The notes beneath the pieces are model-generated. The model searched no databases. It was given only the letters and a program-made list of their open reading frames with translations, and had not been told where the DNA came from. From positions 256,001 through 320,000 of the forward strand of contig CAVZZA010000001.1 of assembly GCA_963779615.1 (NCBI GenBank): a DNA stretch of 64,000 nucleotides. The letters are read 5' to 3'. The translations under genes and the position numbers were made by a program. Origin of the DNA: an uncultured Nitrososphaeraceae archaeon. Its GTDB lineage: Archaea; Thermoproteota; Nitrososphaeria; Nitrososphaerales; Nitrososphaeraceae. Shown in pieces: positions 16,792-61,016 of this stretch; the first letter of the stretch is position 1, and every line of letters starts with the position of its first letter.

Positions 16792-17556
16792 GTGTCAGAA
16801 ATTGAATCTACATTTGTAGTTCTATCAAGGGACTACAATAGGGTATATGATTTAATTAGTGAATGTATATTTAACAAAGGGTATGGAATTGAAAAAAATG
16901 AGATTCAAATATCTGATGCATATTTTGACTCAAAAGATGAAATTTTAAAAAATAAAGACATCGCATTGCGTATTCGAACTATCAATGGTAAAATAACTAA
17001 AATAACTTTAAAAATACCAAGAAATGTCACTGAGAATTATTCGGAAAGGATTGAATTAGAAGAGAATTGGTCAAAAGAATCATTAAATCAAATTCTGTCT
17101 AGATTAAATTCCTATTTATATATCGATATAAATAACACTTCATTCAAATATGATGAGGACCCTAAAATATCCTTATTAAACCAGGGGTTTAAAATAATTC
17201 AAAATAGAGAAACCACTAGAATAGTTATAAATGCTGTTGATAAAAAAACTAAAGGAACAGCATTTGAGTTTGCATTTGATACAACTACATATATTTTTGA
17301 TAGCGATGTAATAAGAATTATGGAATTAGAAATAGAATCAAAAAAACACGGAAATAACATAAAGTTAAACAATTTTGTAAACAACCTTAAAGTGAATCGG
17401 TCCTTACTTAAAATCTGGCCTTATAGTAAACTACTAACAGGAAAAGCTATAGAGATATTATTAAACAATAAAAAATTAAAAGAAATGCAAGATTATGATG
17501 AGAAAAATATTTTAACTTTACCCGGGTTGAAAAAGGTTGAATCAATTATAAAATAA
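16792..17556 (+). CDS. CYTH (triphosphate tunnel metalloenzyme) domain protein
   Basis: N-terminal EIES, DAYFD...ALRIR...ITLK...RIELE...ELEIESK, SKLLTG. Confidence 0.85.
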   Translation: MSEIESTFVVLSRDYNRVYDLISECIFNKGYGIEKNEIQISDAYFDSKDEILKNKDIALRIRTINGKITKITLKIPRNVTENYSERIELEENWSKESLNQILSRLNSYLYIDINNTSFKYDEDPKISLLNQGFKIIQNRETTRIVINAVDKKTKGTAFEFAFDTTTYIFDSDVIRIMELEIESKKHGNNIKLNNFVNNLKVNRSLLKIWPYSKLLTGKAIEILLNNKKLKEMQDYDEKNILTLPGLKKVESIIK

Positions 17557-30254: not shown

Positions 30255-30908
30255 CTATCTTCTTGGGCTCGTTATGCCAGTTACAATATAATTCACTGAA
30301 TCTGCGATATAGCATGCATGATCTGAAATGCGTTCCAAATATTTGAATATTAAAGCAGATGAAATATTGCACCTGTTGTCTGAAAAAACATTGTCCGGTT
30401 TTATGATTTTGGCGGATTCACGCAAGTTTTTTTTGAACATGATATCTACAAAATCCTCCATCTCATAGATCTTGTTTGACATTGAATTGTCCAGTAAGCG
30501 TAAGGCAGATACACTTGTATTCATCATCTCTAAAACGTTTTCCGACATGTGAATAACTGAAGACTTGTCGCATAATTTTAGCGGTCCAAAAATCTCCAGT
30601 GCAGTGATAATATCATAAGCATAGCGTCCAAATCTAGAAAAGCCATAAGATATCTCCATCGAGGATTTTATGTAACGCAGATCAGTGGCGACAGGCTGAA
30701 ATCTAGCAATCAACTCTATTGCTAGTTCTGAAACTTCATCCTGAAGAAAACGCAGTTTGGTGGATGATTCAAATATTTCTTTTGTTGTTTCCAAGTTATC
30801 ATCCTTGTATGACCCAATAGCTTTAATTACGGTGTCTTGGGCAATGCTAGCCATATCAAGGATAATGGTGCTTAACTTGTTTAATCCCAAATCAATTAAT
30901 CGAGTCAA
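30255..30908 (-). CDS. phoU: Phosphate uptake regulator PhoU
   Basis: IARFQPVATDLR, YLERISDHACYIA. Confidence 0.93.
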   Translation of the reverse strand: MTRLIDLGLNKLSTIILDMASIAQDTVIKAIGSYKDDNLETTKEIFESSTKLRFLQDEVSELAIELIARFQPVATDLRYIKSSMEISYGFSRFGRYAYDIITALEIFGPLKLCDKSSVIHMSENVLEMMNTSVSALRLLDNSMSNKIYEMEDFVDIMFKKNLRESAKIIKPDNVFSDNRCNISSALIFKYLERISDHACYIADSVNYIVTGITSPRR

Positions 30909-30946
30909 GGCATATCCAACTATATAAAATGAACAAAGAGGGACAA

Positions 30947-31822
30947 TTATCCAAATTTACCCGAAATGTATCTTTCTGTTAATTCTTTAGCAGGGTTTTT
31001 GAAAATCTGGGTAGTCTTACCAAACTCCACCAATTCTCCAAGGTACATAAAAGCAGTATAGTCTGAGACTCTTGCGGCTTGCTGCATGTTATGAGTCACA
31101 ATTATTACGGTTAGATTTTTTTTAAGGTCACTTATCAATTCCTCTATTTTAGAGGATGCAATGGGATCTAATGCAGAGGTAGGCTCATCCATTAAAAGAA
31201 TCTCAGGCTGCATGGCTAGCGCTCTAGCTATACAAAGCCTTTGTTGCTGACCTCCTGACAAACCCAAGCCGGGTTTGTCAAGGTCATTTTTTACCTCATT
31301 CCACAGCCCAGCATCCTCAAGGCTCTCCTGAACTATATTTTTTAGTAAAGGTTTATCCTTTATACCATTAAGCTTCAAGCCAGAGGCAACATTATCAAAA
31401 ATACTCATGGTGGGAAAAGGGTTTGGTTTCTGAAAAACCATACCCATGCGGCGCTTAATGATAACAGGATCAGAACTTTTGTCATAGATATCAAGGTCAT
31501 CCAGAATTATATTGCCCTTAGCAGAAGCATTAGGAGTCATTTCATGCATTCTGTTTATGCATCTCAACAAGGTTGTCTTTCCGCATCCAGAGGGACCTAT
31601 TAAAGCAGTTACACAGTTTTGCTTAAAATCAATGTTAATGTTTTTTAATGCAAGTTTACTGCCAAACCAAGCGTTTAATGAAGTAATAGATAGCTTTGGT
31701 TTTTCATTGCCAAGCAAATTAGAGGTTTTATCTGTAAATGGAGAAGAAAGACAGGGAGAAGACACATCATCATGTTTTTTTCCATTTGCAGAAGATTTTA
31801 AAAGATTATCCAATAATTTCAT
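30947..31822 (-). CDS. pstB: Phosphate ABC transporter ATPase (likely start ATG 31822)
   Basis: [38 protein letters not shown]. Confidence 0.96.
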
Positions 31823-31901
31823 CTGTAATATAACATGAGTAGGCTTTATATGTAATATATATTGTCTAAATGAAATATATAGTAACATATAGAGGTATAT
31901 A

Positions 31902-32810
31902 TCATGTAGTAGATTTCAATTGGAAACCCCTTTTTTGAGATATCATTCTCAAAATTATACTCATCGACAATACAAGCAATATAAGAAGCAGGGCTGCGCC
32001 CCAGCCCTGTTCGTGTGCCGATGAATATGGTTGGGACGCAAGCCTCCATATTCTCAAGGGCAACGCATCAACTGGCGAATTAAAACTGCTAAAGAACAAA
32101 CTGGTTCCTAAAATAGTCATGATTAATGGGGCAGTTTCACCAGCAATTCTAGATATTCCTAAAACAATACCAGTAATTATACCACTTTTAGAGCCTTTTA
32201 CAACTATATGCCAAACAACCTTCCATTTGGAAATACCAAGGGCATAGGCAGCCTCCCTTAAAGAATTTGGAATTAGCTTCAATGTCTCCTCAGAAACCCT
32301 AGCAACTATCGGTATCATTATTATAGATAAAACAAAGGCTCCCGCACTGACTGAAAATGAGCCTAATGTTAAAACTATGGTGATGTACCCAACTATTCCT
32401 ATAACAACAGAAGGAATGCCTGTCATTACATCATTGAATAGCCTAAGAAAATATGCAAATCGTTTGCTATGGGAAGAGTATTCTGAGAGATAAATACCTA
32501 CAAGAACTCCAATAGGCGCTCCAATTAGTGTGGCAAACCCGACAATCATAAGAGTTCCCTGAATTGCAGGTCCAATTCCTCCGCCAGCTGAACCCATTGC
32601 ACCAGGAGGGAGAATCAGAAAATCTAGATTAAATGCACCAATTCCATTTCTAAATACATCTATTAAAATACTAACAAGTGGTATTATTGCAATGACTACA
32701 AAAATAAACAATACAGCGGTAATCAAATTATTAATGATTTTTCTCTTTCTTGCATTTTTAACAACATATCCTTGAACTATAGATTTATAATCGATATTTT
32801 CTTTATCCAT
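31902..32810 (-). CDS. pstA: Phosphate ABC transporter permease
   Basis: [25 protein letters not shown]. Confidence 0.95.
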
Positions 32811-32811
32811 G

Positions 32812-33808
32812 TTATTCCCTCATATTAGAGTTAGACTTTGTTACCTTTGAAACTATATAAATTGCAATTACATTGATTAAAAGAGTCAGTATAAATAATA
32901 CTAGTCCAAGGCCTATTAAGGCTGACAGCTGATAATTACCCGAGGCTTCATTGAATTCATTTGCAATAATACTTGACAAGGTTTGACCTGGGGAAAATAA
33001 GGAAGTTGGAATTGCAGATAAACCTACTGCATTACCAATAATCATAGTCACTAGAATTGTTTCGCCAATGGCTCTGCCCAATCCCAAAAATGATGCGCCC
33101 AGTAAACCAGATTTCCCATAAGGAAGAATAGCCGTTTTAACCATCTCCCAGCGAGTTGCGCCAAGCGCATATGCAGCTTCTTTTTGCGAATGAGGGACCG
33201 CTTTGATAACTTCTCGCGAAACAGCAGATATAATGGGAATAATCATTATTGCAAGAACTATGCCTGCAGTGAATACATCAAGTCCGAACGGAGTTCTGGC
33301 GAAAATTGATAAATTATCGCCAAATGTGTTATGGAGAGGCATTTCAATATAGTCTCTCAGATAAAATCGAAATACAAATAATGCCCATAGTCCATATACA
33401 ATACTTGGAACTGCGGCAAGTAATTCAACGACAAAAGATAGAACAGTGACCAATTTTCCTTGTTACCATTTCATTAACAAAAATTGCGATTCCTATACTG
33501 ATTGGAACTGCAATAGCCATCGCAATGACAGAGCTAACCAGTGTTCCCACAATATAAGGCAGTGCACCAAATGATTCTCGACCCTCTACAGCATTCCAAT
33601 CAGTTCCAATAATAAAATTTATGCCTTCTTTAAATAAAATTGGGAGGGAACCTTCAGTTAATGCGTAAAAAACAAGAAAAACCATAAACAAAGCATAAAT
33701 TGAAGCTCCAATTACTAGTGCTTTAAAAAATTTATCTCCAGATTTGGATCCGTTTGATTTTGACCGGATTGTCTGAACAACCTTTACCTTATGATCCTTT
33801 AAACTCAA
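32812..33808 (-). pseudogene. pstC: PstC permease split by a +1 frameshift (real or sequencing error)
   Basis: N-part 33425-33808 (FGALPYIVGTL) and C-part 32812-33453 (ELLAAVPSIVYG, GRAIGET); deleting one base of the T4 run at 33454-57 gives ...RKLVTVLSFVVE. Confidence 0.88.
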
Positions 33809-33890
33809 TGTTAACTTTACATAAATACATATTATTAATATAAATTGCCTATATGATGTATATAGAATAACTGAACTATTTAGAAAAAAA

Positions 33891-34989
33891 TTATTTGGTG
33901 GAAATTGGATTTCCTTTAAAGGTTAAAGAATTCAATGTTTGGTTATTTAGTTCAACTACAGAACTAGGTAGCGGAACATATCCCAGTGGTGCTGAAAACT
34001 TTTGACCATCGGTTATAGCCCATGATATGAAATCAACAATAGCTGTTGCCTTTTGCTGATTTATAGTCGGATTTGCGCTTAATTCTTTATACAAGATGAG
34101 GTATGTGAGACTTGAGATAGGGTAAGAATCATGGCCTGGCGCGTTTGTGATTGTTACATTAGTCCACGAATCAGAGCCTTTTGGGAAAGTAGTGGCAGTT
34201 GCATCAACTGCAGCTATAGTGGAATTTATAGTCGGTAGAACAAAATTGCCATCTTTATTTTGAATAGTAGCATAGTTCATTTTTGAAGTTAAAGCATATG
34301 CAAGTTCTACATAACCAATAGAAAATTCTGAGCCTTTAATTGAAGCCGATACTCCCTCGTTACCTGGGGCACCTATGCCGTTTGGCCATGGTACTGATTT
34401 TGAAGTTCCCATCTTTTCAGACCATTCGGGGCTTACTTTAGATAGATAATCTGTAAACACAAATGTTGTACCAGAACCGTCAGAGCGATGAACTGTGTTT
34501 ATAGATTGTGAAGGCAAAGTAAGAGTTGGGTTTAACGCTTTAATTTTAGGATCATCCCATTTAGCGATTTTTCCTAAAAATATATCTGCAATTACAGGGC
34601 CTGATAATTTAAGGGAATTATCAGGAACTCCAGGCAAATTATATGATAGCACAACAGATCCAATGGTTTCTGGAATATGGACAGGGTTCACTGCTTTAGC
34701 AAATTCTGATTTGCTCAGAGGAGCATCTGTTGCCCCAAAATCAACAGTTTTTTCTAAAAATTGTTTAATTCCGCCTCCACTGCCAATAGATGCATAATTA
34801 ATATTTACATCAGGATTAACTTTTTTTGTACTCTACTCTCCATGTGTCTATTAAAGGAAATGGAAAAGTAGCTCCTGCACCATTAAGTGTTACTTGTTGT
34901 GCATTGACTGAATTAATCACAAGGGGCATTAACAACGCCGCCGTTAACAATGCCACACCGATCTTTTTAAAATTAGATATATTTGTCAT
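33891..34989 (-). pseudogene. pstS: PstS phosphate-binding protein split by a +1 frameshift in an A7 run
   Basis: ATG 34989: signal peptide + LNGAGATFPFP...EYKK; run at 34821-27; with A6 it continues VNPDVNINYASIGSGGGIKQF...RSDGSGTT. Confidence 0.9.
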
Positions 34990-35601: not shown

Positions 35602-37041
35602 TTATGTGTTTGGTATTTTCATCAATAGTAACTGACCCCCTTCGTTTAAAGTGTGTGCCTGAACATCTAACATCCAGGTCCCTTCACCAAAAAACTCTGA
35701 AGCATCGAAAATACCGCTTGACTCCCATTCACCATGGTCTGCATTTTGATCTTCGTATTGATTAACATAGCCTATAGTTTTAAATTCATTGGTTTTTAAA
35801 TCCAGATTAATTATTTTCGCATTATTTATAACGTTGTAAGGACTTGTGGGTTTGTAACGATTATAATCATTATGATCTTCTTGAATCATTATGCTGTTTA
35901 AACTTGTATCAACATTATCCGGGTTTATCATCATGTCATGGCCAGGGGCTCGGGGGTCATCCCCATCTGCGAAAACTTTAATCGTCGCCTTGGTTGGGTC
36001 AATAGGGTCATTAAATGTAAATTGATATATTCTGCCATTTGTGAAGTTTTGTCCATTGACTGACGAAGGCGAAATTTTTTGATCATCTTCGTCCACATCA
36101 CTACCAGTTTCTACCATGTAAACGATATTGTTAAACCCATTTCGTTTGTCTGTTGCTCCATCTTCAGGTCGAATAAATTGAAATCCACCCTTATCTATTG
36201 CTTCATTATCCAATTCAGTTTCATTTTGAGTCATGTAATTCCATTCAAGAGGAATAAATTTTCCATTGACTGTTCCGTTACCGTAGTACAGGTTATTCCA
36301 TGATGATTGAGTATTGGATGTAGAGTTGTTTTCTATACCAAATACGTATAGGTTTCCTTTACCATTTAATAAATCATTAGGTGAATTTGCCATATACATA
36401 TAAAGTTCAGATTCCGTGGGATCACCATCTTCGAATGCAAGCATTACTGTTTTGTTTGCAGTGGAGAAATATGGGATATGGATAGTGTTTTCATGAGAAA
36501 ACTTTCCTAACCAGGGTAATTCTTTTACGGTGTTGTTTGTTGCATCTATTGATACAACAAGACCATCATTTGTTTCCTCGTTGGTAAAATACATTGGGTG
36601 AATAAAACCATAACCCTTTGCTAAATAACTAGAACAAAGAGCTTCATATCTTTCTGAGCCATTAATAACCAATCCTGCATCAATTATTGACGGGTTAGAT
36701 TGGTTTAGTGTGAGTTTTGAAACCTTTGCAAACCCATCTTGTCCTGTTTCGTTTTCAAGCTCATGATTAACAAATAAATCCATTTTTCCTTTTTCAGTTT
36801 GGAATGCACCTATACCATCTGGATTTTGAGGAAAATTGAACCCAGTAGTGAGATTATCGTTTGTGGTAATTAATGCATTTATTGTACTATTATATGGAAC
36901 ACTTGATGCCAATGTTACATAGTTTTTTTTTGAAGTTTTAAAAGAGTCGCTATATGCATTTTCGTAAGCAAATAAATTGCATGGAATTAACAACAACGAA
37001 ACTGTTGTTACCACCATCATAATACCGTTAATTAGGTTCAT
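35602..37041 (-). CDS. Secreted PhoX/DUF839-like alkaline phosphatase
   Basis: Signal peptide; PDG, VNHE, LGKFSHEN, RPED, NPDN, IQED, ESSG, DVQAH. Confidence 0.8.
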   Translation of the reverse strand: MNLINGIMMVVTTVSLLLIPCNLFAYENAYSDSFKTSKKNYVTLASSVPYNSTINALITTNDNLTTGFNFPQNPDGIGAFQTEKGKMDLFVNHELENETGQDGFAKVSKLTLNQSNPSIIDAGLVINGSERYEALCSSYLAKGYGFIHPMYFTNEETNDGLVVSIDATNNTVKELPWLGKFSHENTIHIPYFSTANKTVMLAFEDGDPTESELYMYMANSPNDLLNGKGNLYVFGIENNSTSNTQSSWNNLYYGNGTVNGKFIPLEWNYMTQNETELDNEAIDKGGFQFIRPEDGATDKRNGFNNIVYMVETGSDVDEDDQKISPSSVNGQNFTNGRIYQFTFNDPIDPTKATIKVFADGDDPRAPGHDMMINPDNVDTSLNSIMIQEDHNDYNRYKPTSPYNVINNAKIINLDLKTNEFKTIGYVNQYEDQNADHGEWESSGIFDASEFFGEGTWMLDVQAHTLNEGGQLLLMKIPNT

Positions 37042-40213: not shown

Positions 40214-40450
40214 ATGACAGTAGAGCTAAAAAACCACCGAGAACAAGTTTTCAATGTACCGTATAATCGGTTTTTGTAGGCATTAAAGTACATGAATCCC
40301 AAAGGCAATATCCAAAGCGACTAGAGGTTTTTCTTAACTTTGTAAAGATAGAAGGCTCAACCTTAGAGGAAAAACTCTTAGCCTGTATAATAAATCCAAA
40401 TCAAATACAGAATGGCTGCAGGATTCTTTAACCAACTTTATTGCTTTCAA
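40214..40450 (+). pseudogene. N-terminal remnant of a tyrosine integrase
   Basis: YNRFL*ALK..ESQRQYPKRLEVFLNFVKIEG...EWLQDSLTNFIAFQ resembles thaumarchaeal integrase N-termini; 40 bp from the att-like repeat. Confidence 0.6.
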
Positions 40451-40476
40451 TGTTTTCCAGTTTTTCAACAACGCCT

Positions 40477-42240
40477 TTACCCTGGACTCTTAAATGCAGC
40501 CTTGGGAAAGCCAATCTTTATTGGATGCCTAAAAGATGAGTGAATCATGACCAATTCCCCCCTGTTTAACCTGACGATGTTGTTTTTTGTGCTTTCATCC
40601 AGGTTTGAATATGGCTCTGTGGATAACTCAGATATTCCTAATTTCCCTGTTATGTGTAATCCAGTATTTTCCTGTAACTTGTAGTCGGTAGCGCTTTTGA
40701 ACTGCTGCGCAGAAAACAGAATTGTCCCTCTGGATCTTCCCGCAATTATGGTTCTCATGATCTGATCTGAAACTGCACTTTTTCCAAAAGGGGATTTGGG
40801 TATGTATCTGTTAATCTCGTCAATAAACACAAAAATATATGGAGGCTTTTCTTTGTTTTTGATCCTGTCGCCTGTATCGCCATTTGCGCTGTCATTAGGG
40901 GAATCAAACGGGCTTGAAGAGTACAATTCATCGATGCTTTTCATCACATCCCCGACAACAAACGCTTGTTCCTCCACAGAAGATATTGTCGCCACATCTA
41001 TCACAAAGACCTGGCCTGATTTGATTTTCCTTATTTCCCCGCCAAGGTAAGTGCTTGTCACTTTTTTGTCAATGAACATTGGGGACCTCCTCATTCTTTG
41101 TAGTTGACCTAAAAAGTGCAACAGGGAGGATTTGTGTGAGACTATCGATTCGGGATATCCACTAAATTCATACAAGTCAGTCCATGTTCTTATCTCCTTT
41201 CCAGTGTTTTCCCTTAGTGGCCAGGATTCATAGATGTAATCTATGATTGATGAGAGGTTAAAACGGGTGTCATATGCCTCATAGAATAGCAATTCAAGCC
41301 TATCGTAAACATCCTGCAACTCATAGGAGTATGTTTTGAAATTTTTTGGTATGTGCATAGAATTGGGCCTGCCATCTTTGCCTCTTGGCAAAAAATAAAC
41401 TACATTCTCAAAAGGCTCCAACTCCAAATCAAGGATGTTAAATAAATCTTCTGTTCTCTCCTTGATGTCTGTTGGTTTTTGGTCTATGTGTAGCAGATCC
41501 TGTTCCTTGGTGTTGAAAATGACCAGTGCTATGTTCTCCTTCTTCTTTTCAAAAAGTGTTTGATAAGCCGATTGCAATAGAAACAAAATGTAATTGCTTT
41601 TCCTATTTCCTGAAATCCCTGAAGCATTTACGTGTGCTGTATCGGGACCAGCCAAATAAGTCAATGCTAATGAAATGGGAACCTGCAAGCCATTTGTTGT
41701 TTCTATAACCCCTGCAGGAATCGGGTCTACCATTTCTGGAATTCCTAGAGCGAAAATAATCTCATCTTCTGTGGCAAATCTAACGGGTTTGCCTATGCCT
41801 ACTGGAAAGTTTATAGAAATAGCCTCCTTACGGCCTTCCACTTTTGCCCCAGTGTTTGCCATTATCCCCACTTTTGCCAATACCGACCCTTTTGGGGAAT
41901 CGCTGCATAATATTTGTTCTTGTTTTTCTGGGTCCTTTTGGCAATCCGTAACATAATCAGCATAAACATTTTCTGCAACTGCCTGCAACTCCTTTACAAT
42001 CCCGATTGTTTTGCTGTTGTGCAAATTGTCAACTGTAACAAAATCAAAAGAGTTTACCATTGTGTTGGGCTTAACGGCAAACCAGAAGCCATCCATGTTG
42101 TTGAGGAATCTTTTTGATGCTATGGTTTTTCCAACATCCTCAGGTGAGCTTGAATCCGTCGAAATCTTTTCGTCATTCAGATTTGCTGGTGTTGACCTGA
42201 TTAAATGAGCAACCTCATCTTTCTGGTACTTTAAACTCAT
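40477..42240 (-). CDS. HerA-family ATPase with atypical P-loop
   Basis: HAS-barrel-like N-terminus; HVNASGISGNRKS, VIFNTK, FIDEINRY, GRSRG..LFSAQQF. Confidence 0.78.
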   Translation of the reverse strand: MSLKYQKDEVAHLIRSTPANLNDEKISTDSSSPEDVGKTIASKRFLNNMDGFWFAVKPNTMVNSFDFVTVDNLHNSKTIGIVKELQAVAENVYADYVTDCQKDPEKQEQILCSDSPKGSVLAKVGIMANTGAKVEGRKEAISINFPVGIGKPVRFATEDEIIFALGIPEMVDPIPAGVIETTNGLQVPISLALTYLAGPDTAHVNASGISGNRKSNYILFLLQSAYQTLFEKKKENIALVIFNTKEQDLLHIDQKPTDIKERTEDLFNILDLELEPFENVVYFLPRGKDGRPNSMHIPKNFKTYSYELQDVYDRLELLFYEAYDTRFNLSSIIDYIYESWPLRENTGKEIRTWTDLYEFSGYPESIVSHKSSLLHFLGQLQRMRRSPMFIDKKVTSTYLGGEIRKIKSGQVFVIDVATISSVEEQAFVVGDVMKSIDELYSSSPFDSPNDSANGDTGDRIKNKEKPPYIFVFIDEINRYIPKSPFGKSAVSDQIMRTIIAGRSRGTILFSAQQFKSATDYKLQENTGLHITGKLGISELSTEPYSNLDESTKNNIVRLNRGELVMIHSSFRHPIKIGFPKAAFKSPG

Positions 42241-42978: not shown

Positions 42979-43683
42979 TTATAGACTATATTTTTTCCTA
43001 AATGTTGAGGCGATGATGGACGTTCCCATAAAGGTGGCGGTCCAATACAGCCATAGGTTTTCCACCATTCCCCCCGACAACAAAGCAGGGGCCAAGGACC
43101 TGGCAGGGTTCATTGATGCTCCGGATATAAATGCCAAAAAGAATATGTCCAAGCCAACGATTCCAGCAATAACAATACCGCCAAAACCTCTCAAGCCCTT
43201 TGTATATACCACCACCAAGATTACAGCCATCAATAAAGCAGAAGCCAATACCTCCACCCCAAATATCAAAGGCAAAGGATACGCATAGTTCGGTGAGTTG
43301 GCCCCCAGAAAAGCCTCATTCCCTATGGCATACTTTACAAACAAGCTTGCCAATAGCGCCCCTATTATCTCTGCAGATATGTAAAGCAGCAACTGCCTTT
43401 TTGTTATGTGCTTTGTAATCAGGAAACCCAAGGTCACGGCAGGGTTAAAATGCGCCATGGAGATTTTGCCAAACAGGTATACGCCTATCGCTACTCCAAC
43501 AAATGGCGCAAATGCAATAAAGGGAATTCCCAATACCCCGTTCATTTTGGCGTCAATAACTACAGAGCCAGTGGCCAATACCACGACAATAAAAGTTCCA
43601 ATTACCTCAGCAATAAACTTCTTTTGGCTTGAGGACAGGTTATCCCTCAATGTTGTGACCAGGCTATTTGTTGCGTTTTTCAC
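42979..43683 (-). CDS. MIP/aquaporin family channel (probable arsenite channel)
   Basis: HFNPAVT and SMNPARS NPA motifs; downstream of arsC. Confidence 0.9.
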   Translation of the reverse strand: MKNATNSLVTTLRDNLSSSQKKFIAEVIGTFIVVVLATGSVVIDAKMNGVLGIPFIAFAPFVGVAIGVYLFGKISMAHFNPAVTLGFLITKHITKRQLLLYISAEIIGALLASLFVKYAIGNEAFLGANSPNYAYPLPLIFGVEVLASALLMAVILVVVYTKGLRGFGGIVIAGIVGLDIFFLAFISGASMNPARSLAPALLSGGMVENLWLYWTATFMGTSIIASTFRKKYSL

Positions 43684-43753
43684 CGTCTTCTCTTCTCTTC
43701 TGTTAGTTTACAACCTGATTTTCCATGACAACATATAAAATATTGTGTAAGCT

Positions 43754-44209
43754 TTAGTTTTCCTTCTCATCTTTGCCAATTTGTTCTACTGCTTCCTTTA
43801 TTCTCCTCTTGATTTCATCCCTTATCTCCCTTACCTTTTCTATGGGCTTGTCCTTAGGGTCCTCAATTCCCCAGTCCACAACTTTAGGGACAAATAAAGT
43901 AGGGCAGAAATCTTTATCCATGCATCCCATGTTGATTATTTTTGTTGCGTTTCTTATCATGTCTTCGGTAAGCTCCTTTGGTTTTTGGCTGCGGATATCT
44001 ATACCAATTTCTTTCATCACGTCTACAGCAACGGGATTGATTTGGGATTTATGGCGTGTCCCGGCGCTTATTGGTTCATAATCGTCGGTACCATACTTTC
44101 TAAAAAAGCCCTCTGCCATTTGGCTGCGCCCTGCATTCTCTACACACACAAAGAGTATCATCTTTTTTGTTTTGTTTTCAGCATATTTACTTTTGAATGA
44201 GAGCTTCAT
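43754..44209 (-). CDS. arsC: Arsenate reductase (LMW-PTP type)
   Basis: FVCVENAGRSQMAE, MGC..D.CP, WGIEDP. Confidence 0.9.
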   Translation of the reverse strand: MKLSFKSKYAENKTKKMILFVCVENAGRSQMAEGFFRKYGTDDYEPISAGTRHKSQINPVAVDVMKEIGIDIRSQKPKELTEDMIRNATKIINMGCMDKDFCPTLFVPKVVDWGIEDPKDKPIEKVREIRDEIKRRIKEAVEQIGKDEKEN

Positions 44210-44237
44210 TTTTCAATGCCATCTTGTTTTTTTATTG

Positions 44238-45026
44238 TTATTTAATCGCCTTCACAGCAAGGCTGGTAATTTTTCTTCCCCCCCCACCATTCCCTTCCAT
44301 CTCGGTGTATGGTTTTTCATCCAGCGCCTCAACATTGGTAAACCCTGCTTCCCTTATGGCATTGACATAGTTTTCTTTTGTTAATGCGCCATCAATGCAA
44401 CTGCACCAATTATCCGCATTTACAGAGTACTCGTTCATTTCTTTAGATGTGACCAAATCCGATATCACCATTTTTCCAATCCCATTTGGCTCTAGAATCC
44501 TGTGTATCTCGAATGCATCTACCTTATTGGATGCAAGGTGGATAACGCAATTGCTTATGACTACATCTGCACTGTTATCCTCAACAAGTATTCTTTTCTC
44601 AATGTCCCCTTGCCGGAACTCTACGTTTTTGTAATTGTATTTTTTAGCGCTATTTCTTGCTTTTTCTAAAATCTTATCCGTCATGTCTATTCCAACGACC
44701 TTTCCGTTATCCTTGACAATATTGGCAGCCAAGAACACATCAATGCCGGCCCCCGAACCCAAGTCAACTACCGTATCTCCCTCTTTTATATGGGCAAATT
44801 TTGTGGGGTTACTGCATCCTACCCCCAGAATAGCGGGTTGGGGTATGGCCGCCAATTCCTCTGAATCATAACCGATTGCTTTTGAAGAATTAATTTGGGA
44901 ATCGACATTATTTTCAGGACTGCAACATTCTGAAGGCATGCAACAAGAATCTGAATTACCAAATACGGCGATTGTGCCACATCTTTCTTCGATTTTATTC
45001 TTTATGTTTTTGTCACTAGTGGTCAT
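44238..45026 (-). CDS. arsM: Arsenite S-adenosylmethyltransferase
   Basis: SCC...CC, LGVGCSNP, DLGSGAGID, ISNCVI, WCSCIDGAL. Confidence 0.88.
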   Translation of the reverse strand: MTTSDKNIKNKIEERCGTIAVFGNSDSCCMPSECCSPENNVDSQINSSKAIGYDSEELAAIPQPAILGVGCSNPTKFAHIKEGDTVVDLGSGAGIDVFLAANIVKDNGKVVGIDMTDKILEKARNSAKKYNYKNVEFRQGDIEKRILVEDNSADVVISNCVIHLASNKVDAFEIHRILEPNGIGKMVISDLVTSKEMNEYSVNADNWCSCIDGALTKENYVNAIREAGFTNVEALDEKPYTEMEGNGGGGRKITSLAVKAIK

Positions 45027-45030
45027 ACCT

Positions 45031-45049
45031 TAGTTTACATTAGAAACTA
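45031..45049. promoter_or_regulatory. Inverted repeat TAGTTT-N7-AAACTA, candidate operator
   Basis: Lies in the 55-bp divergent promoter between arsM and the HxlR regulator. Confidence 0.5.
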
Positions 45050-45081
45050 TTTAAGTTGGTAAGAGTAAAATAGTAAAGCAA

Positions 45082-45519
45082 GTGAAATCAGGTAAACAAA
45101 AGGGTTCTAAAGCAGTCAATAGAAATGATTTATCCAAGGATAGCGCATCCAAGTTACCAACTGTTCACAATGATAATAATTCTTGCGATTTCAAAGGATA
45201 CGATGTTGATGTATTGATGAAAGAAACATCATCGCTAAGAAAATTAGTAACAAAGAGAGGAACACTAGAAATTTTGTTACCATTGTGTTGTACTACCGAT
45301 TCTGTAAGATACCTAAAATTCAAAAAAACAATGAAGGGTTTCAGCAGCAAAACCCTTGCAACAAGGTTAAAAGAGCTAGAAAGAAGTGGAATTTTAAACC
45401 GACAAGCATACAACGAAATCCCACCCAGGGTAGAATATCGATTGACAGCAAAGGGACAAGAATTAACAGAATCCATAGTGGGTTTATTGCAATGGATGAT
45501 TAAATGGTCAACAAAATAA
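45082..45519 (+). CDS. HxlR-family winged-helix regulator with vicinal Cys-Cys
   Basis: SSKTLATRLKELE...EIPPRVEYRLT; LLPLCCT. Confidence 0.88.
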   Translation: MKSGKQKGSKAVNRNDLSKDSASKLPTVHNDNNSCDFKGYDVDVLMKETSSLRKLVTKRGTLEILLPLCCTTDSVRYLKFKKTMKGFSSKTLATRLKELERSGILNRQAYNEIPPRVEYRLTAKGQELTESIVGLLQWMIKWSTK

Positions 45520-46289: not shown

Positions 46290-46751
46290 TCAATCATTTT
46301 TGAGATCATTTATTTTGCTAACAGTTTTTTCTATAGACCTTCTTACATCATCCAATAACTCTTCAAGGACTTTTTCATCAAAATCGCCTTTTTTGCGCGA
46401 GTTCAGCTCACTATTGTAATACTTCATCCAAGAATATGTACGTTGGATGCTTTGAAAAAGCTCAAATTGAAGAAGCGATTGTTTTCCTGAAAGTATTACT
46501 GCATCCCACATGTCAGTTAGAAATGGCTTGTAATCTTTGTATTGTAATGATTCATCAATAAAACAAAGTCTATGTTCTAAATCGTCCTTGATAAATCTAA
46601 TTATGTTTTTTATGGTTTTTTTGTCTTCCTTCACTTGAGACCAACGATAGGCCCAGTGTTCTATATATACAGTAAACCAAATTATTCCCGCTAATAGAAC
46701 CATTTCAACAATAAGGTAATCCCAATCAATAGCCATAGTAACATAATACAA
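46290..46751 (-). CDS. Hypothetical membrane-anchored protein
   Basis: N-terminal hydrophobic helix, 153 aa. Confidence 0.65.
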   Translation of the reverse strand: MYYVTMAIDWDYLIVEMVLLAGIIWFTVYIEHWAYRWSQVKEDKKTIKNIIRFIKDDLEHRLCFIDESLQYKDYKPFLTDMWDAVILSGKQSLLQFELFQSIQRTYSWMKYYNSELNSRKKGDFDEKVLEELLDDVRRSIEKTVSKINDLKND

Positions 46752-47114: not shown

Positions 47115-48017
47115 TTAAACAAGTTTTTTAACCTCTGGAAGATCTCTACACATATTCACAAATTGCTTTTGCTTATTCTCCAAATCTTTGTTCAATTTAT
47201 TGGCAAGTTCTACTATATATTGTTCAGAGCCAGCTTTTTTCAGCAATTTCAAGGCATTGTTAGTATTATTTATATCCTGCAAGACTTGCTGAACTTTTTC
47301 CAAATCCTTTGCAACAGTTATGGCTTTATTACTTTGCTGATTAGGAACTTTGTTATCGCTTTGTTCCTTACTATTTGATAGAATATCTAAAGTAAGCTGT
47401 AATTTTTCCAACATCTTTAGGAATCTGTTAGTTTTTCTGAGGGCATTATTATCCAATGTGTTGTCTGAAACAATTATTCTAATTTTGTTTTCTAATTTTT
47501 TTGTTAAACGATCCAACCTCAGAATGAATTTCTTTGTTCTCTTTTGTATGGAGAAGCTACTGAATTTACTATCAAATGATGTTAATTGAAGAGAATTAAA
47601 ATCGAAAATAATTTTATTTGCTTTTGATAATAAACCTTGTTTTTCAACTTTAAGATAGTTTTCAAAATTTCTTTTATGAGTTTGTTCACTATCTGTAGTT
47701 TTATTCTTCATTATTTCTTTATCGATTATATCAAATGCTTTCAATTTTCGCTCTAGTTTATAGAGAGATATAGATATTTCTTCAATCTCTTTCAAGGTCT
47801 TTTGTTTTCTGATTTTCTTTGGAAAAACTATTTGGTTGGTTCCCAAATCTTTTAGTGTAGAGCTTATATCGGAAAAATCTTTATCGTTATTATTCTTCAA
47901 ATAGTTACTGGCCTTATTCTTTAATTCTATCACATTTTTTTCATAATTGTTTACATACCTTTTAATCACATTTTCTTCCAAGGCAACTATATTGCTGGTC
48001 ATAAATTTCTCTAACAA
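47115..48017 (-). CDS. Divergent CHAD-like helical protein
   Basis: Aligns by eye to the CHAD at 58777 (NYLKNNNDKDFSDI/EYIKDPNEENIHDI; PKKIRKQ/PKQIRKK; LEKVQQVLQDI/LEKIQDMLGNV). Confidence 0.65.
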   Translation of the reverse strand: MLEKFMTSNIVALEENVIKRYVNNYEKNVIELKNKASNYLKNNNDKDFSDISSTLKDLGTNQIVFPKKIRKQKTLKEIEEISISLYKLERKLKAFDIIDKEIMKNKTTDSEQTHKRNFENYLKVEKQGLLSKANKIIFDFNSLQLTSFDSKFSSFSIQKRTKKFILRLDRLTKKLENKIRIIVSDNTLDNNALRKTNRFLKMLEKLQLTLDILSNSKEQSDNKVPNQQSNKAITVAKDLEKVQQVLQDINNTNNALKLLKKAGSEQYIVELANKLNKDLENKQKQFVNMCRDLPEVKKLV

Positions 48018-48020
48018 CGG

Positions 48021-48065
48021 TTATATTTAGGTATATAGTCTATATTCATCTATATAGTCTATATC
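48021..48065. promoter_or_regulatory. About 10-bp periodic TATAT array (candidate Pho box) in the divergent CHAD/kinase promoter
   Basis: TATAT at 48022, 48032, 48041, 48051, 48060. Confidence 0.5.
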
Positions 48066-48180: not shown

Positions 48181-48939
48181 ATGCAAAATAATAAAACAAA
48201 ATCTAGTAAAGACATTGGAACTCTCATAGTGGTTGAGGGGATAGATGGGTCTGGAAAGTCAACTCAAATACACCTGCTGGATAAGTGGTTGAGATCAAAA
48301 GGGTATAACGTTTTTTTTACCGAGTGGAACTCTTCCGCATCTGTTAAGGAAATTACCTCCAAGGGCAAGAAAAAGGCCATGTTGACCCCAACAACTTTTT
48401 CTCTCCTTCATGCAACGGATTTTGCTGACAGGTATGAAAGGAATATTTATCCGCTGTTGAGGGCGGGGTACATCGTGCTTGCGGACAGGTACGTCTATAC
48501 CGCGTTGGCAAGGGACATTGTTAGGGGATGCGACAAGGGATGGGTGGAAAACATCTACAAGTACGCAATTAAACCGGACATAATTTTTTATTTTCAGGTG
48601 CCTGTAGAAACTGCAGTCAACAGAATCATAACAAGCAGGCCAAAACTAAAATATTATGAGGCTGGAATGGACTTAAAGTTAAGCAAGGATGAACATGAAA
48701 GCTACAGGATATTCCAAGGGAGAATCGTTGATGAATATGAATCAATGGTAAACCCGGAGGGGTTCACAGTAATTGACGGCACCATGGACATTGAAAAACA
48801 ACAAAACTTGGTAAGAAAACGCGTATTAAAGTCCCTAGGCAACAAAAAAACACTCCTGGGTGACACACTTCAAGAAGGCAACGATATAAAAGTGGTGACA
48901 AGAAACGAAACCAAAAAAGCCAATCAGCAAAAACAATAA
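48181..48939 (+). CDS. Thymidylate-kinase-like protein A (putative PPK3 polyphosphate kinase subunit)
   Basis: VEGIDGSGKST, TEWNSS, LLHATDFADR, ADRYVYT, YYEAGMD; CHAD/pst context. Confidence 0.8.
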   Translation: MQNNKTKSSKDIGTLIVVEGIDGSGKSTQIHLLDKWLRSKGYNVFFTEWNSSASVKEITSKGKKKAMLTPTTFSLLHATDFADRYERNIYPLLRAGYIVLADRYVYTALARDIVRGCDKGWVENIYKYAIKPDIIFYFQVPVETAVNRIITSRPKLKYYEAGMDLKLSKDEHESYRIFQGRIVDEYESMVNPEGFTVIDGTMDIEKQQNLVRKRVLKSLGNKKTLLGDTLQEGNDIKVVTRNETKKANQQKQ

Positions 48940-49003
48940 AATAAAGTTCATAGATACAGGAATAAAGTATCTTCAGGACATAGAGATAAAGGGGTCTTTT
49001 GTA

Positions 49004-49645
49004 GTGATAGAGGGTCCCGATGCATCAGGAAGAAGCACACAGATTGAAAAAATAACAACAAAACTTGAGGCTGACGGGCATGCTGTTGTAAATGCAGGGT
49101 TGCGGAGATCGGATCTTGTTTCCAAAGGGATTATGGAGGCAAAAAGAAATTATTTGATAGGGAATAGGACAATGACCCTTTATTACGCGGCAGATTTTGC
49201 AGACCAGCTGGAAAAAAAAATCATTCCGGCGCTAAAGGCAGGTTTCATTGTGATTTCTGACAGATACATATACACACTGATAGCGAGAAGCTCTGTCAGG
49301 GGAATAGACAAAAACTGGCTGCACAGCTTATTTAGTTTTGCCATCAAACCGGATTTGGTTTTCCATTTGGATGTAGATCCGCATAACTTGATACACAGGG
49401 TGTTTCAGAAAAACTACTCCCTGGACTATTATGAGTCGGGGGTTGATCTTGGGATTTCCAGCGACATTTTTGACTCATTCATAAAATACCAGTATGCACT
49501 GAAAAGGGAGTTTGAAAGGATGAGGGCAAGGTATAACCTGATTAACATAGACGGCAATGAAAGCATTGAGAAGGTGTACCAGCAAATCCAATCACAGATA
49601 GACGACTTTTTAATATCGGAAAACAAGGAAACGGTAATAAGGTGA
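49004..49645 (+). CDS. Thymidylate-kinase-like protein B with altered P-loop (putative PPK3 partner); frame open from 48899
   Basis: IEGPDASGRST, YAADFADQLE, SDRYIYT, YYESGVD. Confidence 0.78.
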   Translation: MIEGPDASGRSTQIEKITTKLEADGHAVVNAGLRRSDLVSKGIMEAKRNYLIGNRTMTLYYAADFADQLEKKIIPALKAGFIVISDRYIYTLIARSSVRGIDKNWLHSLFSFAIKPDLVFHLDVDPHNLIHRVFQKNYSLDYYESGVDLGISSDIFDSFIKYQYALKREFERMRARYNLINIDGNESIEKVYQQIQSQIDDFLISENKETVIR

Positions 49646-49735
49646 AATTATAACATTCTATTTGCATTCCAAAGATCATATAATGATACAGATATTAAGG
49701 CAATTATTGAAATATCATGATAGCATTGACAATTA

Positions 49736-49894: not shown

Positions 49895-50555
49895 TTGATA
49901 TTATTTAGTGGTGGGGGCGTACCTATAGTTGATCTAAGTGAAGTATGTAAATGCACATAGAAGAGGTGCATCTATAATGAATCACTTGAATTATACTTGT
50001 ATATCTTGTAATAAACTATTGTTGCTTAAATATAGTAACTACAATATTAAATAACCACGTCAATTATCTCATCTTTTACTAAATCGCCAAATATCGACAT
50101 ATACAAATACCCATCACGAAATATCTCCTTTCTAAAGATAGTAAAAATAGCAATTTATTTTTAAAATTAGTTAAGTAGGCTAAAGTAAATACTGTTTCCC
50201 GATGGAAGCTTTAGTATTTGCTACAGTTTTTTCAATATTTTTATAGCTATTTCCCACTTCAATACTTTTTTCTATTATTTACTTTATTTTTTAAATAAAT
50301 ACCTAATCTTCGAAAAGATTTCCAATCTTTTATTTTTATTTTTATCTAATACTCTTTTATCTTTGCATGACAATTTTGTTCATCCAAATTATGGAAAATT
50401 AATTACAGGTTAAGATGGCTGTTCTTAACCTGTAAAGTAGAAAGTATTTTTGGTTGCGTGTTTTACGGGTGTTCCCCATCTAATGATATTAAAATTAAAC
50501 ATTTATCCTTATCATAAATGAAATATATGAAAAATATTCATCATATAGACAACAT

Positions 50556-51590
50556 TAGATCTCGCATAATTAGCATAAACAGATTTATGACCATCAGATC
50601 ATTAATTCATGTCCTTTCCTTGCTCTCATATGACAGGTTGTCCAAAAACCCATTGCTTTTCAAGTCATCCACCGGCTGACGGTAAAGGAGTTTGATGACA
50701 TTATGATATGAAGATGTTAAAAAGACAAGGCAAGCATGAGATCAGGCGATTATCCAAAAGAAATGATAGTAGAAAACGATCCATGGGTGCTGGGCGACAT
50801 TTCAAGATGGATGTTAAAAACAGGCTCCTGGTGCTTTTGGGCTACTATTGCCGCCTTTACACAACCTACCCGTTGGCCGGCTTTTTGTTTGACTTGGACC
50901 AGAGTAACGTCTGCAGGGATATTCAAAAGATTGAGTCGCGGGTAAGAAAATGCCTGCCAATTCCGCAAAAGACGCACAGATTGTCAAAAAGGATGCTCAC
51001 ACCAGAAGGGGTTGAAAAAATGTTTCCAGGCTTTCTGTCCTTCATAGACCGCACAGAACAGCAGATACCAATGCCTCACAAAAAAAGAAGAAAGGCGTAT
51101 TATTCAGGCAAGAAGAAAAGGCATACCGTAAATACACAGCTCATGGTTAACAATCAGGGTATCATCATTCACAAAACAGGCCACAAGAAAGGAAAAAGGT
51201 ATGACTACAACATATATAAAAATAATCACCCTGTGATTCTAATGCAAGTTGTCAGCGTGTTTGACCGTGGTTATCGAGGTTGAGAGAGACTTTCCTGACC
51301 AAAAGTCATCCTTGCCAAACAGAAAGATGAGAAACCAAGAGTTGACTCAAGAGGAAAATAAGTACAACCAGAACCACTCTAAAAAAAAGATGGTGATAAA
51401 GTATACCATTTGCAAGATGAAAAAGGACAGGATAATGGGCTACATCTTTAGAAACAGTCTCAAAAAGTATGACAAGATATCAGACATAGTTTCAGGACTG
51501 GTAAACTACAGAGCATTGTCATCTTTTTAGATAGGCATCAGTCTTGCCGTACTGATGGGACATACTGTTTCTGATTATGCAAAAGATCTA
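50556..51590 (+). mobile_element. IS5-family (ISL2/DDE_Tnp_4-like) element with decayed transposase
   Basis: Imperfect IRs TAGATCTCGCATAATTAG / CTGATTATGCAAAAGATCTA; GAGRHFK, FDLDQSNVCR, YSGKKKRHT, DRGY. Confidence 0.85.
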
Positions 51591-51785
51591 TGGAATCACG
51601 GGACGGCCTATCGTGTTGCTTGGTTTTTCGTCGGGCAATATGGCGATTATCCTGTCCCATAACTTGTCTCGAATTTTGGCGATGGCATGTTTATCTTTAA
51701 TCTTGTGGCAATTGCAGCAGCAAGGCGCACTTTTATCAAGGTTAACAACAAGACTATATGTCTACCTATTTTTGGGACAGTCTCT
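51591..51785 (-). mobile_element. Left end of an IS5/IS427-like element cut by the adjacent IS
   Basis: IR AGAGACTGTCCCAAAA (cf. 56281); IRDKLWDRIIAILPDEKPSNTIGRPVIP. Confidence 0.8.
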
Positions 51786-55816: not shown

Positions 55817-56280
55817 ATGATTTATAATAGAGTGCGTGCCATAAGTATCGCAATCGATGTAGATGGTTCTCCATCAGGTTACATTTCTTGGCATAATCAT
55901 TTTTTTAATAAAAGTAAAATTAGAGTATTAAAACCATCAAAAAAAAATGAAAAGTTTGGGGTTCAGAGAATGGAAATGCTTGCAGTTTATTTTGCTATTT
56001 TAGACAATTTGAAAGGATTTAGAAAAATTAAAAGAACAAAAAAAAAGAATCATTATTGTTAGAAGTGACTCAAAGTCTACAATAGAACAATTAAATAAAA
56101 AAATAGGGATAAAAGACAGCATCATGAGGAGGATTTATAATTCCATAATACGGGTATTAGAAAAAGTTTCCTGCAATCTTATTTTTAATTATTTAAATAG
56201 AACAAAAAATTCGGCAGGAAAGTTATTAGAGCATCTTCGAAGGGAAAGTATATACATTCAAAAGAAAGGTCAACAGACTA
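55817..56280 (+). pseudogene. RNase H-like protein, +1 frameshift in an A9 run, 3' end abutting the IS
   Basis: DVDGS, MEMLAV; after removing one A at 56038-46: IIVRSDSKSTIEQL...RTKNSAG. Confidence 0.65.
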
Positions 56281-57215
56281 AGAGCCTATCCCAAAAACCG
56301 ATATAATTATGCTTGTTATCGTTTTCATTTACGAGTGGCATCGGTCTATCATAAGAACAAGAATAAACAGACATTAACAAATATTCCAGATGAACATGGG
56401 ATGAAATTGTTTCAGTTTTACCAAGGAAAAACCCGATAATGCGATTGGTCGTCCAATTGTTCCCTACAGAAAAGTAGTGGACGGTATTCTATACATCCTA
56501 AGAACAGGGTGCCAGTGGAAGATGCTGCCTGCAGAGTATGGTTCAGGTTCAACATGTCATCGACGATTTCAGGGGTGGGCGGGGTTAGACATTTTCAAAA
56601 AGGCATGGATCAGGTTGTTGCAATCATATGATAACAAACAAGGTATCAAGTGGACATGGCAATCGCTTGACAGCATATCCATAAAGTCTCCTTTAGGTGG
56701 GCAATGACCGAAGGAAGCAATCCCACTGACAGAGGCAAACTGGGCACAAAAAGGCATGTTTTAACGGATACAAAAGGAATCCCACTCTCAGTTGTCATAT
56801 CATCCGCAAGCACTCATGATACAAAACTAGTAACAGATGTAATGGATAATACAATTATCAAACGATCATCATCATCAAAGAAACGTAAATTATCCAGAAA
56901 AAGAAAACTGCAACACCTGTGTCTTGATAAGGCGTACAGTTCCAAGACAGTAAAACAGGAAATCATCAACCGAGGATATGTGCCGCATTTACCGTACAAG
57001 AGAAAAAGAGGAGAGGGCAAGACAGAAACACAAAAGATGTCAAATCGAAAAAAACATCCTGCCAGAAGATGGGTTGTGGAAAGAACCAACTCATGGCACA
57101 ACCGATTTAGAAAACTGCACACAAGATATGAGAGGAAAGCAGAGAACTATCTTGGGTTGGTACAGTTCTCATGTTGCATCATCATCTACAGAAAGATAGT
57201 TTTGGGATAGGCTCT
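56281..57215 (+). mobile_element. IS5-family (IS427-like) element, two-ORF transposase
   Basis: 16-bp IRs AGAGCCTATCCCAAAA, TA duplication; ORFs 56477-56707 and 56704-57210 (TGCQWKMLP; DKAY; RWVVERTNSW); 5' frameshifts. Confidence 0.93.
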
Positions 57216-57319
57216 TAATAATAAACTTCAATAAATAATTTACTTATTATTTCCTAATGGAATCAAATAATATATTATTAATTAGATTTCCATCGGTATA
57301 AATGGAAATTTATTCTATT

Positions 57320-58776: not shown

Positions 58777-59688
58777 TTATAAAAAATTGTTGTCGGCATC
58801 TAAAAGATCAGATTTACAATATTGGACGAACTCGTCATATTTGTTTTTTCTTATCATGGCAATATTATTTTCAGCGATAACGCTGTTATGTGTATTATGT
58901 CGTTTTAAACAGGCAGTTGTTATATCATAATCATGAACGTTTCCAAGCATATCCTGAATTTTTTCTAATTTATCTATCAGGCTAGAAACATTATGATTAT
59001 CTTCATGATCGTTCTTATCAACTACCTCATTTTCGTCAATACTTTCTTTATTCTTATCCTTATTGCTTAAAACAAGCTCCAGTAAATAACGCAATTTCTT
59101 GGCATCCTTTCTTATCTCATGTAACTCCTCAATTTTTTCGCTATTGTTGATTACAATGGGAAAGTTTTTCTCCATTCTGCAGACAAATTTACCAACAATT
59201 TTATTATATCTTTTAATTAATTTCTTTTGCACCGTACCACGTTCATATAGCTTATTATCGTTATTTATATGGGTAACATTTAACTTTCTTAGGCCAATGG
59301 CAACGGATAACGCCTTATCAAGTTTCCTATTTTTTTGTCTTTTAATTGATTTACTTAGTATTTCAAGCTGTTGTTCATCCATCTGCCCTTCCTTGTTTAA
59401 CTTTTCTAGAACAATATCAAAATCCCTGATTTCACTATTTAGTTTAAAAAGGCGTTTGCTATTAAATACATATTTTTTTATTCTTTTTTTCCGGATTTGC
59501 TTTGGGCTGGCGCTATACGATGCTTCTAGCCTTCTAAATGCTGTTCGTATATCGTGAATGTTTTCTTCATTAGGATCTTTAATGTACTCATTCAATCTCT
59601 TGCCTACCTTTTGGATATTATGGACATAGTTATCAAAAAAAGTATCTAAATTAATAGAATGCGGTATATCAAAAATTAACCTTGACAC
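58777..59688 (-). CDS. CHAD-domain polyphosphate-binding protein
   Basis: IHDIRTAFRRL, IRDFD, LHEIRKDAKKLRY, QDMLGNVHD. Confidence 0.92.
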   Translation of the reverse strand: MSRLIFDIPHSINLDTFFDNYVHNIQKVGKRLNEYIKDPNEENIHDIRTAFRRLEASYSASPKQIRKKRIKKYVFNSKRLFKLNSEIRDFDIVLEKLNKEGQMDEQQLEILSKSIKRQKNRKLDKALSVAIGLRKLNVTHINNDNKLYERGTVQKKLIKRYNKIVGKFVCRMEKNFPIVINNSEKIEELHEIRKDAKKLRYLLELVLSNKDKNKESIDENEVVDKNDHEDNHNVSSLIDKLEKIQDMLGNVHDYDITTACLKRHNTHNSVIAENNIAMIRKNKYDEFVQYCKSDLLDADNNFL

Positions 59689-60459: not shown

Positions 60460-61016
60460 ATATTTATGTAATCTTTAAATAGTCTCACTATATAATCTAT
60501 ATAATTGCATATAAACTATATAGATTGGACCTTAAGCATACATATATTGAGGTGTGTGAAGGCGTCTGGTCACAACTCGGGCCGTTGAATTATTGATTGA
60601 TGAGTGACTCGGAGTGACTCAACAGGGCAGTGAATTAATCATGGTTAACCATTCAACCATATAAACCGTATTAAAGGAGTGTGAAGGAGAAAAGCGGAAA
60701 AACAGCATGAGGCGTTTCAGCATAGCTATTCCTACCGTTTTATCCACAGTATCCGGCGTATGCAATAAAAACATGACAATAGGTAAATAGTATTACCAAC
60801 CTTTTGACGAACTGCCCAAACAAGAAGCGACGGCAAGAAAAATCGCTCTAATGGCTACCGATCATACAACCACCAGACAGTAGATAAATGAAGATTATCT
60901 ACATTATAATTTAAAATGTCAAGTATAGTTCACTTGAATAGGTGATGCTCTTACAATAGGAAGTTGAGGATACTTTCAACTTAGGTTATGTACAATTAAT
61001 CCAAGTTTCCACAACG

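Follow-up and report, generated by a model that had tools for sequence, protein, structure and literature searches.

A tandem gene pair annotated as thymidylate kinases in a soil Nitrososphaeraceae archaeon probably encodes the catalytic and regulatory subunits of a PPK3-type polyphosphate kinase

A heteromeric polyphosphate kinase has been described from Sulfolobus acidocaldarius by Hofmann et al. (J Biol Chem 2026, PMC12995831), from parts of which, and of its preprint, we take what follows on this enzyme. Its subunits, the catalytic cPPK3 (Saci_2019) and the regulatory rPPK3 (Saci_2020), were formerly annotated as thymidylate kinases (Tmk or dTMPK) and together form an α2β2 polyphosphate kinase, SaPPK3, which is reversible and strongly favours the formation of ATP from polyphosphate (polyP). 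The rPPK3 that was tested is inactive alone, and in rPPK3s the arginine of the DRX motif is replaced or absent, which both the paper and the preprint give as the cause of inactivity. PPK3 has not retained the residues with which dTMPK binds dTMP, and its sites for ADP and polyP have changed places compared with those of PPK2, whose two-domain class II members combine one inactive with one active domain. Most PPK3 carriers are reported there to be without PPK1 and PPK2, and Nitrososphaeraceae are already named among the carriers. Here we explore a stretch of 64,000 nt (positions 256,001 to 320,000 of contig CAVZZA010000001.1, assembly GCA_963779615.1), hereafter the window, from an uncultured Nitrososphaeraceae archaeon, which holds at 48181-49645 two adjacent genes of thymidylate kinase fold, A and B. 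A preliminary description, made from the sequence of the window, had pointed to a tandem Tmk-annotated pair of S. acidocaldarius, characterised as a heteromeric PPK3, and taken A and B for its counterpart; the paper bears this description of the S. acidocaldarius pair out.

Both genes lie on the + strand and overlap or abut. A (48181..48939) starts with ATG and encodes 252 aa. B was listed as an open reading frame (ORF) of 213 aa with a GTG start (49004..49645); here it is taken as 48905..49645, its start being uncertain. We consider it probable, at roughly 85%, that they are the catalytic (A) and regulatory (B) PPK3 subunits of a Nitrosocosmicus-type ammonia-oxidising archaeon, a reading that draws on sequence comparison. 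Tandem dTMP-kinase-fold genes had been claimed for this place, and the two ORFs are indeed there, both above the cut-off of 27 bits of the Pfam family Thymidylate_kin (PF02223; A 81.7 bits, B 81.5 bits). The NCBIfam equivalog TIGR00041 'dTMP kinase' (cut-off 83.25) also takes in both, A with 95.8 and B with 90.2 bits; no PPK3-specific model is among their NCBIfam matches, and neither protein matches PPK2 (PF03976) significantly. Their named close homologues in the protein collection belong to Candidatus Nitrosocosmicus and are all labelled dTMP kinase. A and B are 36% identical to each other. A reads GIDGSGKST at Walker A and also has ATDFADRYE, ADRYVYT, TEWNSS, KGKKK and KYYEAGMD, and B reads GPDASGRST, in which the Walker-A lysine has become arginine, AADFADQLE, SDRYIYT and DYYESGVD; the two P-loops and the shared DFAD and YYExGxD motifs are all present as first quoted. 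As in SaPPK3, two Tmk-fold genes are adjacent and the catalytic one comes first.

When solved structures were searched, both proteins found PDB 2plr_A, aligned over the whole fold, as their best relative: A at E 1.1e-60, against 8e-15 for the best canonical Tmk, and B at E 1.2e-37, against 1.4e-13. This structure, like 4nzy, 4rzx and 5h70, is STK_15430 of Sulfurisphaera tokodaii, which was solved without a partner subunit, deposited as 'probable thymidylate kinase' and, in passages of Hofmann et al. (PMC12995831) and of the preprint, reassigned to cPPK3.

A phylogeny against true Tmks and the Sulfolobus subunits, proposed in the preliminary description, was built by a careful IQ-TREE run on 85 rows picked by hand from 216 sequences, namely both members of 32 pairs together with 21 single Tmks of the phylum. 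The 64 rows of A and B were split from the 21 single Tmks with support of 100/100. All 32 B proteins, eight of them from Sulfolobaceae, formed one clade (100/99) with the window B inside it, which places the latter together with the regulatory subunits of the Sulfolobaceae and is a further likeness to SaPPK3. The window A fell inside a Nitrososphaeria A clade (100/98), and Nitrososphaeria and bacteria A were joined at 99/92; support for all A together was 95/54.

Residues were counted over 97 A subunits, 94 B subunits and 21 single Tmks. The Walker-A lysine and the DRX arginine are present in 97/97 A, and the window A is basic at 13 of the 14 columns that hold Lys or Arg in at least 90% of the A subunits; an intact Walker A, the DRX motif and conserved basic residues are thus features which it has in common with SaPPK3. 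Canonical Tmks, for instance the one encoded at C4:83318-83866 of the same genome, share with A and B the P-loop kinase fold, the P-loop, DRX and the lid arginine, but form the separate clade described above. They also differ at four columns, F (19/21), R (20/21), Y (21/21) and Q (19/21), which we take to be dTMP contacts and which are replaced in both subunits, by H, F, R and D in A and by Y, F, R and N/A in B. This replacement agrees with the non-conservation of dTMP-binding residues stated in the text of Hofmann et al. on which we draw (PMC12995831). In addition, the lid of A and B carries a 12-residue insertion, RPKLKYYEAGMD, that is found in none of the 21 single Tmks. PPK2 (PF03976), too, is a P-loop kinase and exchanges phosphate between nucleotides and polyP, but belongs to another family than A and B.

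The pair is widespread. A scan of species genomes gave 599 matched stretches, 567 of which were confirmed as relatives, and the record titles of the best 80 relatives name 50 archaea, 29 bacteria and one entry without organism. An adjacent pair of Tmk-like ORFs with the A type first was found at 75 of 80 loci from genome contigs and at all 20 loci that were taken individually. In a sample of the phylum (401 genomes) strong matches occurred in three families: the window's own (2/2 other genomes), a neighbouring one (12/56 sampled) and a third, f21, in which 15/15 genomes matched, 14 at E<=1e-57. We identify f21 as Sulfolobaceae because one of its proteins, L091_A, is 100% identical to 2plr_A. 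Within the genus, 27 of the 33 other genomes searched carry a PPK3 pair, 26 of them a single pair and one (G409) three matches.

By analogy with SaPPK3, A would transfer phosphate reversibly between the end of the polyP chain and ADP/ATP; the Walker-A lysine, which is intact, the DRX arginine and a cleft lined by conserved basic side chains would serve it in this. B, a paralogue without catalysis of its own, would dock onto A at the classical Tmk dimer face and stimulate it by forming an oligomer. When energy charge is low, flux may run mainly from polyP towards ATP, as has been reported for SaPPK3. It is from this analogy that we infer the enzymatic activity, the α2β2 stoichiometry and the direction in which flux runs in the cell. 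A model of the complex was computed from A residues 8-222 and B, with an alignment of 46 rows for each and three controls. It reached an ipSAE of 0.62, the best control 0.14; of 80 solved complexes, 58 attain the mark used for ipSAE, as do 2 of 110 mismatched pairs. Partner pLDDT was at least 86 and contacts agreed between runs to at least 93%. The predicted interface also takes in the TGIKY of an N-terminal extension of B, and the model supports binding of A to B.

None of the public sequencing runs contains over 0.31 of the words sampled, from which it follows that the contigs mapped there come from relatives. In three RNA libraries from two studies, contigs cover stretches of A and of B with 88-99% likeness. 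The A/B junction is spanned with no indels by one contig of the soil metatranscriptome run X12 and one of X16, from relatives about 92-94% alike. This hints that relatives transcribe the pair, weakly since DNA can occur in RNA libraries.

Several observations weigh against a PPK3 complex of catalytic A and regulatory B. The function assigned rests on homology to one characterised enzyme, to which A is about 46-50% identical. At position 123, where 90 of the 97 A subunits have Arg or Lys, the window A has Glu, and the window B keeps the DRX arginine (SDRYIYT) that is published as lost in rPPK3s (PMC12995831 and preprint, in the passages cited above). The frame of B has no ATG, GTG or TTG before GTG 49004. 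The interface of the model is the classical Tmk dimer face, which means that its score may owe to solved Tmk homodimers. No ppx gene stands next to either of the two copies of the pair in this genome, and none is in the window; the sole Ppx-GppA match of the genome lies at C3:1013002, some 95 kb from the copy on contig C3. Finally, a PPK2 gene (PF03976, 232.8 bits) is present at C4:123619-124293 (-), and the synthesis or use of polyP is consequently not assignable to the pair alone.

Of 18 other genomes of the genus that were searched, 15 also carry PPK2, as against 0/12 genomes searched from other families of the order, and PPK1 had no match in the genome, which is 92.5% complete. The earlier statement that the window holds neither PPK1 nor PPK2 is true. 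Its larger claim, that a PPK3-type pair rather than housekeeping genes is present and makes the polyP of this organism, divides in two: similarity, tree, residues, the separate canonical tmk, synteny and the complex model speak for the first part; the second is overstated in view of the PPK2 on contig C4, of its occurrence across the genus and of the preference of SaPPK3 for forming ATP from polyP. Compared with SaPPK3, the window pair differs in having no adjacent ppx, in sharing its genome with PPK2, in being duplicated and in its host, a mesophilic soil archaeon as judged by related records. The presence of a separate canonical dTMPK in the genome and of a CHAD gene in the ancestral neighbourhood are likenesses.

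The alternative that survives best leaves the complex working and concerns the state of B, which in this branch may be other than an inert scaffold and still bind nucleotide or even catalyse. The DRX arginine (R103) is present in 82 of the 94 B subunits, and the remaining 12 are all Sulfolobaceae, with glycine in its place (DGY, 12/12). As the tree places the window B inside the regulatory clade, we read the loss of DRX as specific to that lineage and not as a sign that the window B stands outside the family. The Sulfolobaceae B proteins, about 28-35% identical to the window B, are also without the conserved N-terminal extension of some 30 residues, (F/Y)YGxGIxYLxD, that is carried by B outside Sulfolobaceae and reads KIKFIDTGIKYLQD in the window. 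The change of the Walker-A lysine to arginine is found in 90/94 B, including 8/12 of the Sulfolobaceae, and B further retains R148 (94/94), R115 (94/94) and the glycines, Ser/Thr and Asp of the P-loop.

The window B keeps both the DRX and the lid arginine and differs mainly by the Walker-A substitution; Walker-A K->R mutants often still bind nucleotide, and an arginine so strictly conserved, rather than drifting, suggests that the nucleotide site has been kept. Against this, most of the basic residues specific to A are gone from B: K157 has become Asp in 91/94 and R84 Gln in 68/94, and basic residues remain at the columns of K65, R87 and R212 in 10%, 5% and 24%. Moreover, the only rPPK3 tested was inactive alone according to the parts of Hofmann et al. 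cited here (PMC12995831). We regard it as possible, if rather doubtful, that in the branch of Nitrososphaeria and bacteria B is not inactivated as in Sulfolobus and that it could act as a nucleotide-binding sensor (e.g. of ATP/ADP) setting the direction or rate of polyP-ATP exchange, or keep residual catalysis. The Walker-A arginine would then be the ancestral mark of rPPK3, and the loss of DRX secondary in Sulfolobaceae.

The start of B requires a closer look. Its frame is open from 48899, after a TGA at 48896-98. GTG 49004 lies inside strand β1, two codons before the EG of the P-loop, and a start there would remove β1 and the conserved extension; homology of B to its relatives and to PDB 2plr begins upstream of this codon. 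The ATG start of B in L129, a close relative within the genus, aligns gap-free to ACG 48905-48907. The first start codon of translation table 11 in the frame is ATC 48923. The C-terminal tail of A is about 25 codons longer than in relatives of the genus and overruns the old start of B, the stop of A being at 48937-39. A canonical start at least five codons before EG is missing in four of the 94 B ORFs, two of which are the copies of this genome. As we read it, translation of B would begin at a non-canonical codon (ACG 48905, ATC 48923 or ATA 48941), perhaps coupled to termination of A. Two other arrangements were rejected. Fusion of A to B by a +1 frameshift was dropped, since the A6 run at 48912-48917 on which it would occur is not conserved in the copy on contig C3. 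A fusion of A and B had also been considered in view of open frames of about 500 aa around A in three genomes of the genus; in two of these, L127 and L129, the stop-to-stop ORF lists show separate A and B.

The copy on contig C3 is a lineage-specific duplicate. Window positions 48205-49650 align gap-free to C3:916635-918080 with 95.5% identity over 1446 nt, and the C3 copy comprises the two genes only, from 24 nt inside A to 5 nt past B, between unrelated flanks. Among the 34 genomes of the genus searched, this is the only one with two pairs. In the relatives L014, L102 and L103 a CHAD gene stands directly downstream of B, and the neighbours of the L014 pair (an ArsC-type phosphatase, a methyltransferase and HxlR) match window 43754-45519; since it keeps flanks seen in relatives, the window locus is taken as the ancestral one. 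Here, two copies of insertion sequences (IS) and other DNA separate B from the CHAD gene. The first IS (50553..51591, Pfam fragments of a DDE_Tnp_4-type transposase) has dozens of copies, 73-84% identical, on contigs C1, C2, C3 and C5, and the second (56280..57230, DDE_Tnp_1 transposase) has many elsewhere in the genome, up to 94% identical. The genome is rich in such elements, both families being present in dozens of 71-94% identical copies over these four contigs.

With a B that has no canonical start, two IS copies between B and the CHAD gene and a second pair in the genome, the window copy could be taken for a decaying duplicate that has lost the start of B and been invaded by IS, the working PPK3 being the copy on C3. 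We judge this improbable. On C3, too, B has this ACG and no canonical start, and both nucleotide differences between the copies within the B extension are synonymous in the frame of B. Comparison of the two copies gives dN/dS values of 0.158 (A) and 0.14 (B) at a dS of about 0.14-0.16, which implies purifying selection on both genes of both copies since duplication. It is the window locus, and not C3, that keeps the flanking genes of the relatives, and since only 48205-49650 was duplicated, it is the C3 copy that has a foreign 5' end.

Least probable is that A and B are genuine thymidylate kinases, additional paralogues serving nucleotide metabolism, as annotation pipelines label them. The PF02223 and TIGR00041 cut-offs and the homologues named dTMP kinase speak for this; against it stand the 100/100 split from the single Tmks, the replacement of columns nearly fixed in those, the reassignment to cPPK3 of the closest solved relative, the polyphosphate kinase encoded by the S. 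acidocaldarius pair that once bore the same annotation (PMC12995831, in the parts cited), and a third, higher-scoring tmk on contig C4. The latter emerged from a genome search with PF02223, which matched five places: the window pair, the pair at C3:916662-918018 and the single gene on C4. This candidate housekeeping tmk (- strand, 216 aa) has the best PF02223 score of the genome, 110.2 bits, and 110.6 bits with TIGR00041, and the separate gene that the preliminary description had advised to look for is thus present. Its motif is NRY in place of the usual DRY, and in the tree it forms a very long branch (4.61) among the single Tmks.

Both profile collections call A and B dTMP kinase and no PPK3 model is among the matches, so that automatic annotation keeps mislabelling such pairs, and surveys of ammonia-oxidising archaea will miss a polyphosphate kinase. 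A comparative study of marine members, in those of its passages which we cite, mentions only the polyP-utilisation genes ppA and ppX (PMC7490402). Because the pair is so widespread in the genus (27/33), the family (2/2) and the neighbouring family (12/56), polyP is probably a common reserve of phosphate and energy in soil nitrifiers. With the family and its presence in Nitrososphaeraceae already in print, our finding adds detail rather than a new system, namely the state of the B subunit, the co-occurrence with PPK2, the lineage-specific duplication and the non-canonical start.

A neighbourhood with genes for polyP or phosphate (PPX, CHAD, Pst and others) is a mark of PPK3, and the surroundings of the pair hold several such genes. 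CHAD proteins are usual partners of polyP granules, and the CHAD-domain protein at 58777..59688 (-; PF05235, E 1.1e-16), 9 kb downstream, is the sole CHAD match in the genome; its place in the island had been correctly called. The pst genes claimed for the island form a phoU-pstB-pstA-pstC-pstS operon at 30255..34691 (-), 13.5 kb upstream of the pair, with PstS matching TIGR00975 at 296 bits. A CYTH gene, also claimed, lies at 16792..17556 (+), 31 kb from the pair; 59863-60459, considered for this role, was rejected, its only match being a weak one to a C2H2 zinc finger.

Two further assignments held in part. The ORF divergent from A (47115..48017, -, 300 aa) had been called CHAD-like. By BLASTP it aligns end to end with the window CHAD protein (23% identity over 282 residues, E 5e-8, residues 20-290), and a CHAD homologue of L009 matches it at E 8e-11; it does not keep the histidine-containing motifs of the true CHAD protein and matches no Pfam (E up to 5) or NCBIfam model, and we regard it as a degenerate CHAD-like protein. 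The ORF next to pstS (35602..37041, -, 478 aa) had been described as PhoX-like. In the ESM Atlas (0.97, 231/256 features) all 30 of its matches are clusters flagged as PhoX family, a likeness to be read as a lead only, and PF05787 (PhoX) has no match in the genome. At the same Pfam and NCBIfam thresholds 35602-37041, 40477-42240 and 46290-46751 are equally without match.

The intergenic region between A and its divergent neighbour contains at 48022..48065 two 19-bp tandem units, each with a near-palindrome, ATATAGTCTATAT, which from its sequence could be a shared operator or a TATA-like element. Double ATATA[AG]NCTATAT sites 19 bp apart occur only twice in the 3.17-Mb genome, here and at 60488-60526 (60490/60509), upstream of the zinc-finger ORF located ahead of the CHAD gene. 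The palindrome itself, ATATAGNCTATAT, is not enriched genome-wide, with 24 sites at up to one mismatch compared with about 32 in block shuffles. Nor is it conserved upstream of A: under a slightly wider pattern ten of the relatives' loci contain a site at all, and only that of L007 has one near A.

Elsewhere in the window, where G+C varies between about 27 and 43% (2-kb bins), the genes at 42979-45519 encode a MIP channel, a low-molecular-weight phosphatase (ArsC-type), an S-adenosylmethionine-dependent methyltransferase and HxlR, and look like an arsenic-handling set. At 24574-28143, RtcA (RNA 3'-phosphate cyclase) adjoins a pair of HerA-like ATPase and NurA-like nuclease. An ORF of 586 aa without family match, at 40446-42194, has a copy of 90.8% identity at C3:151957-153704.

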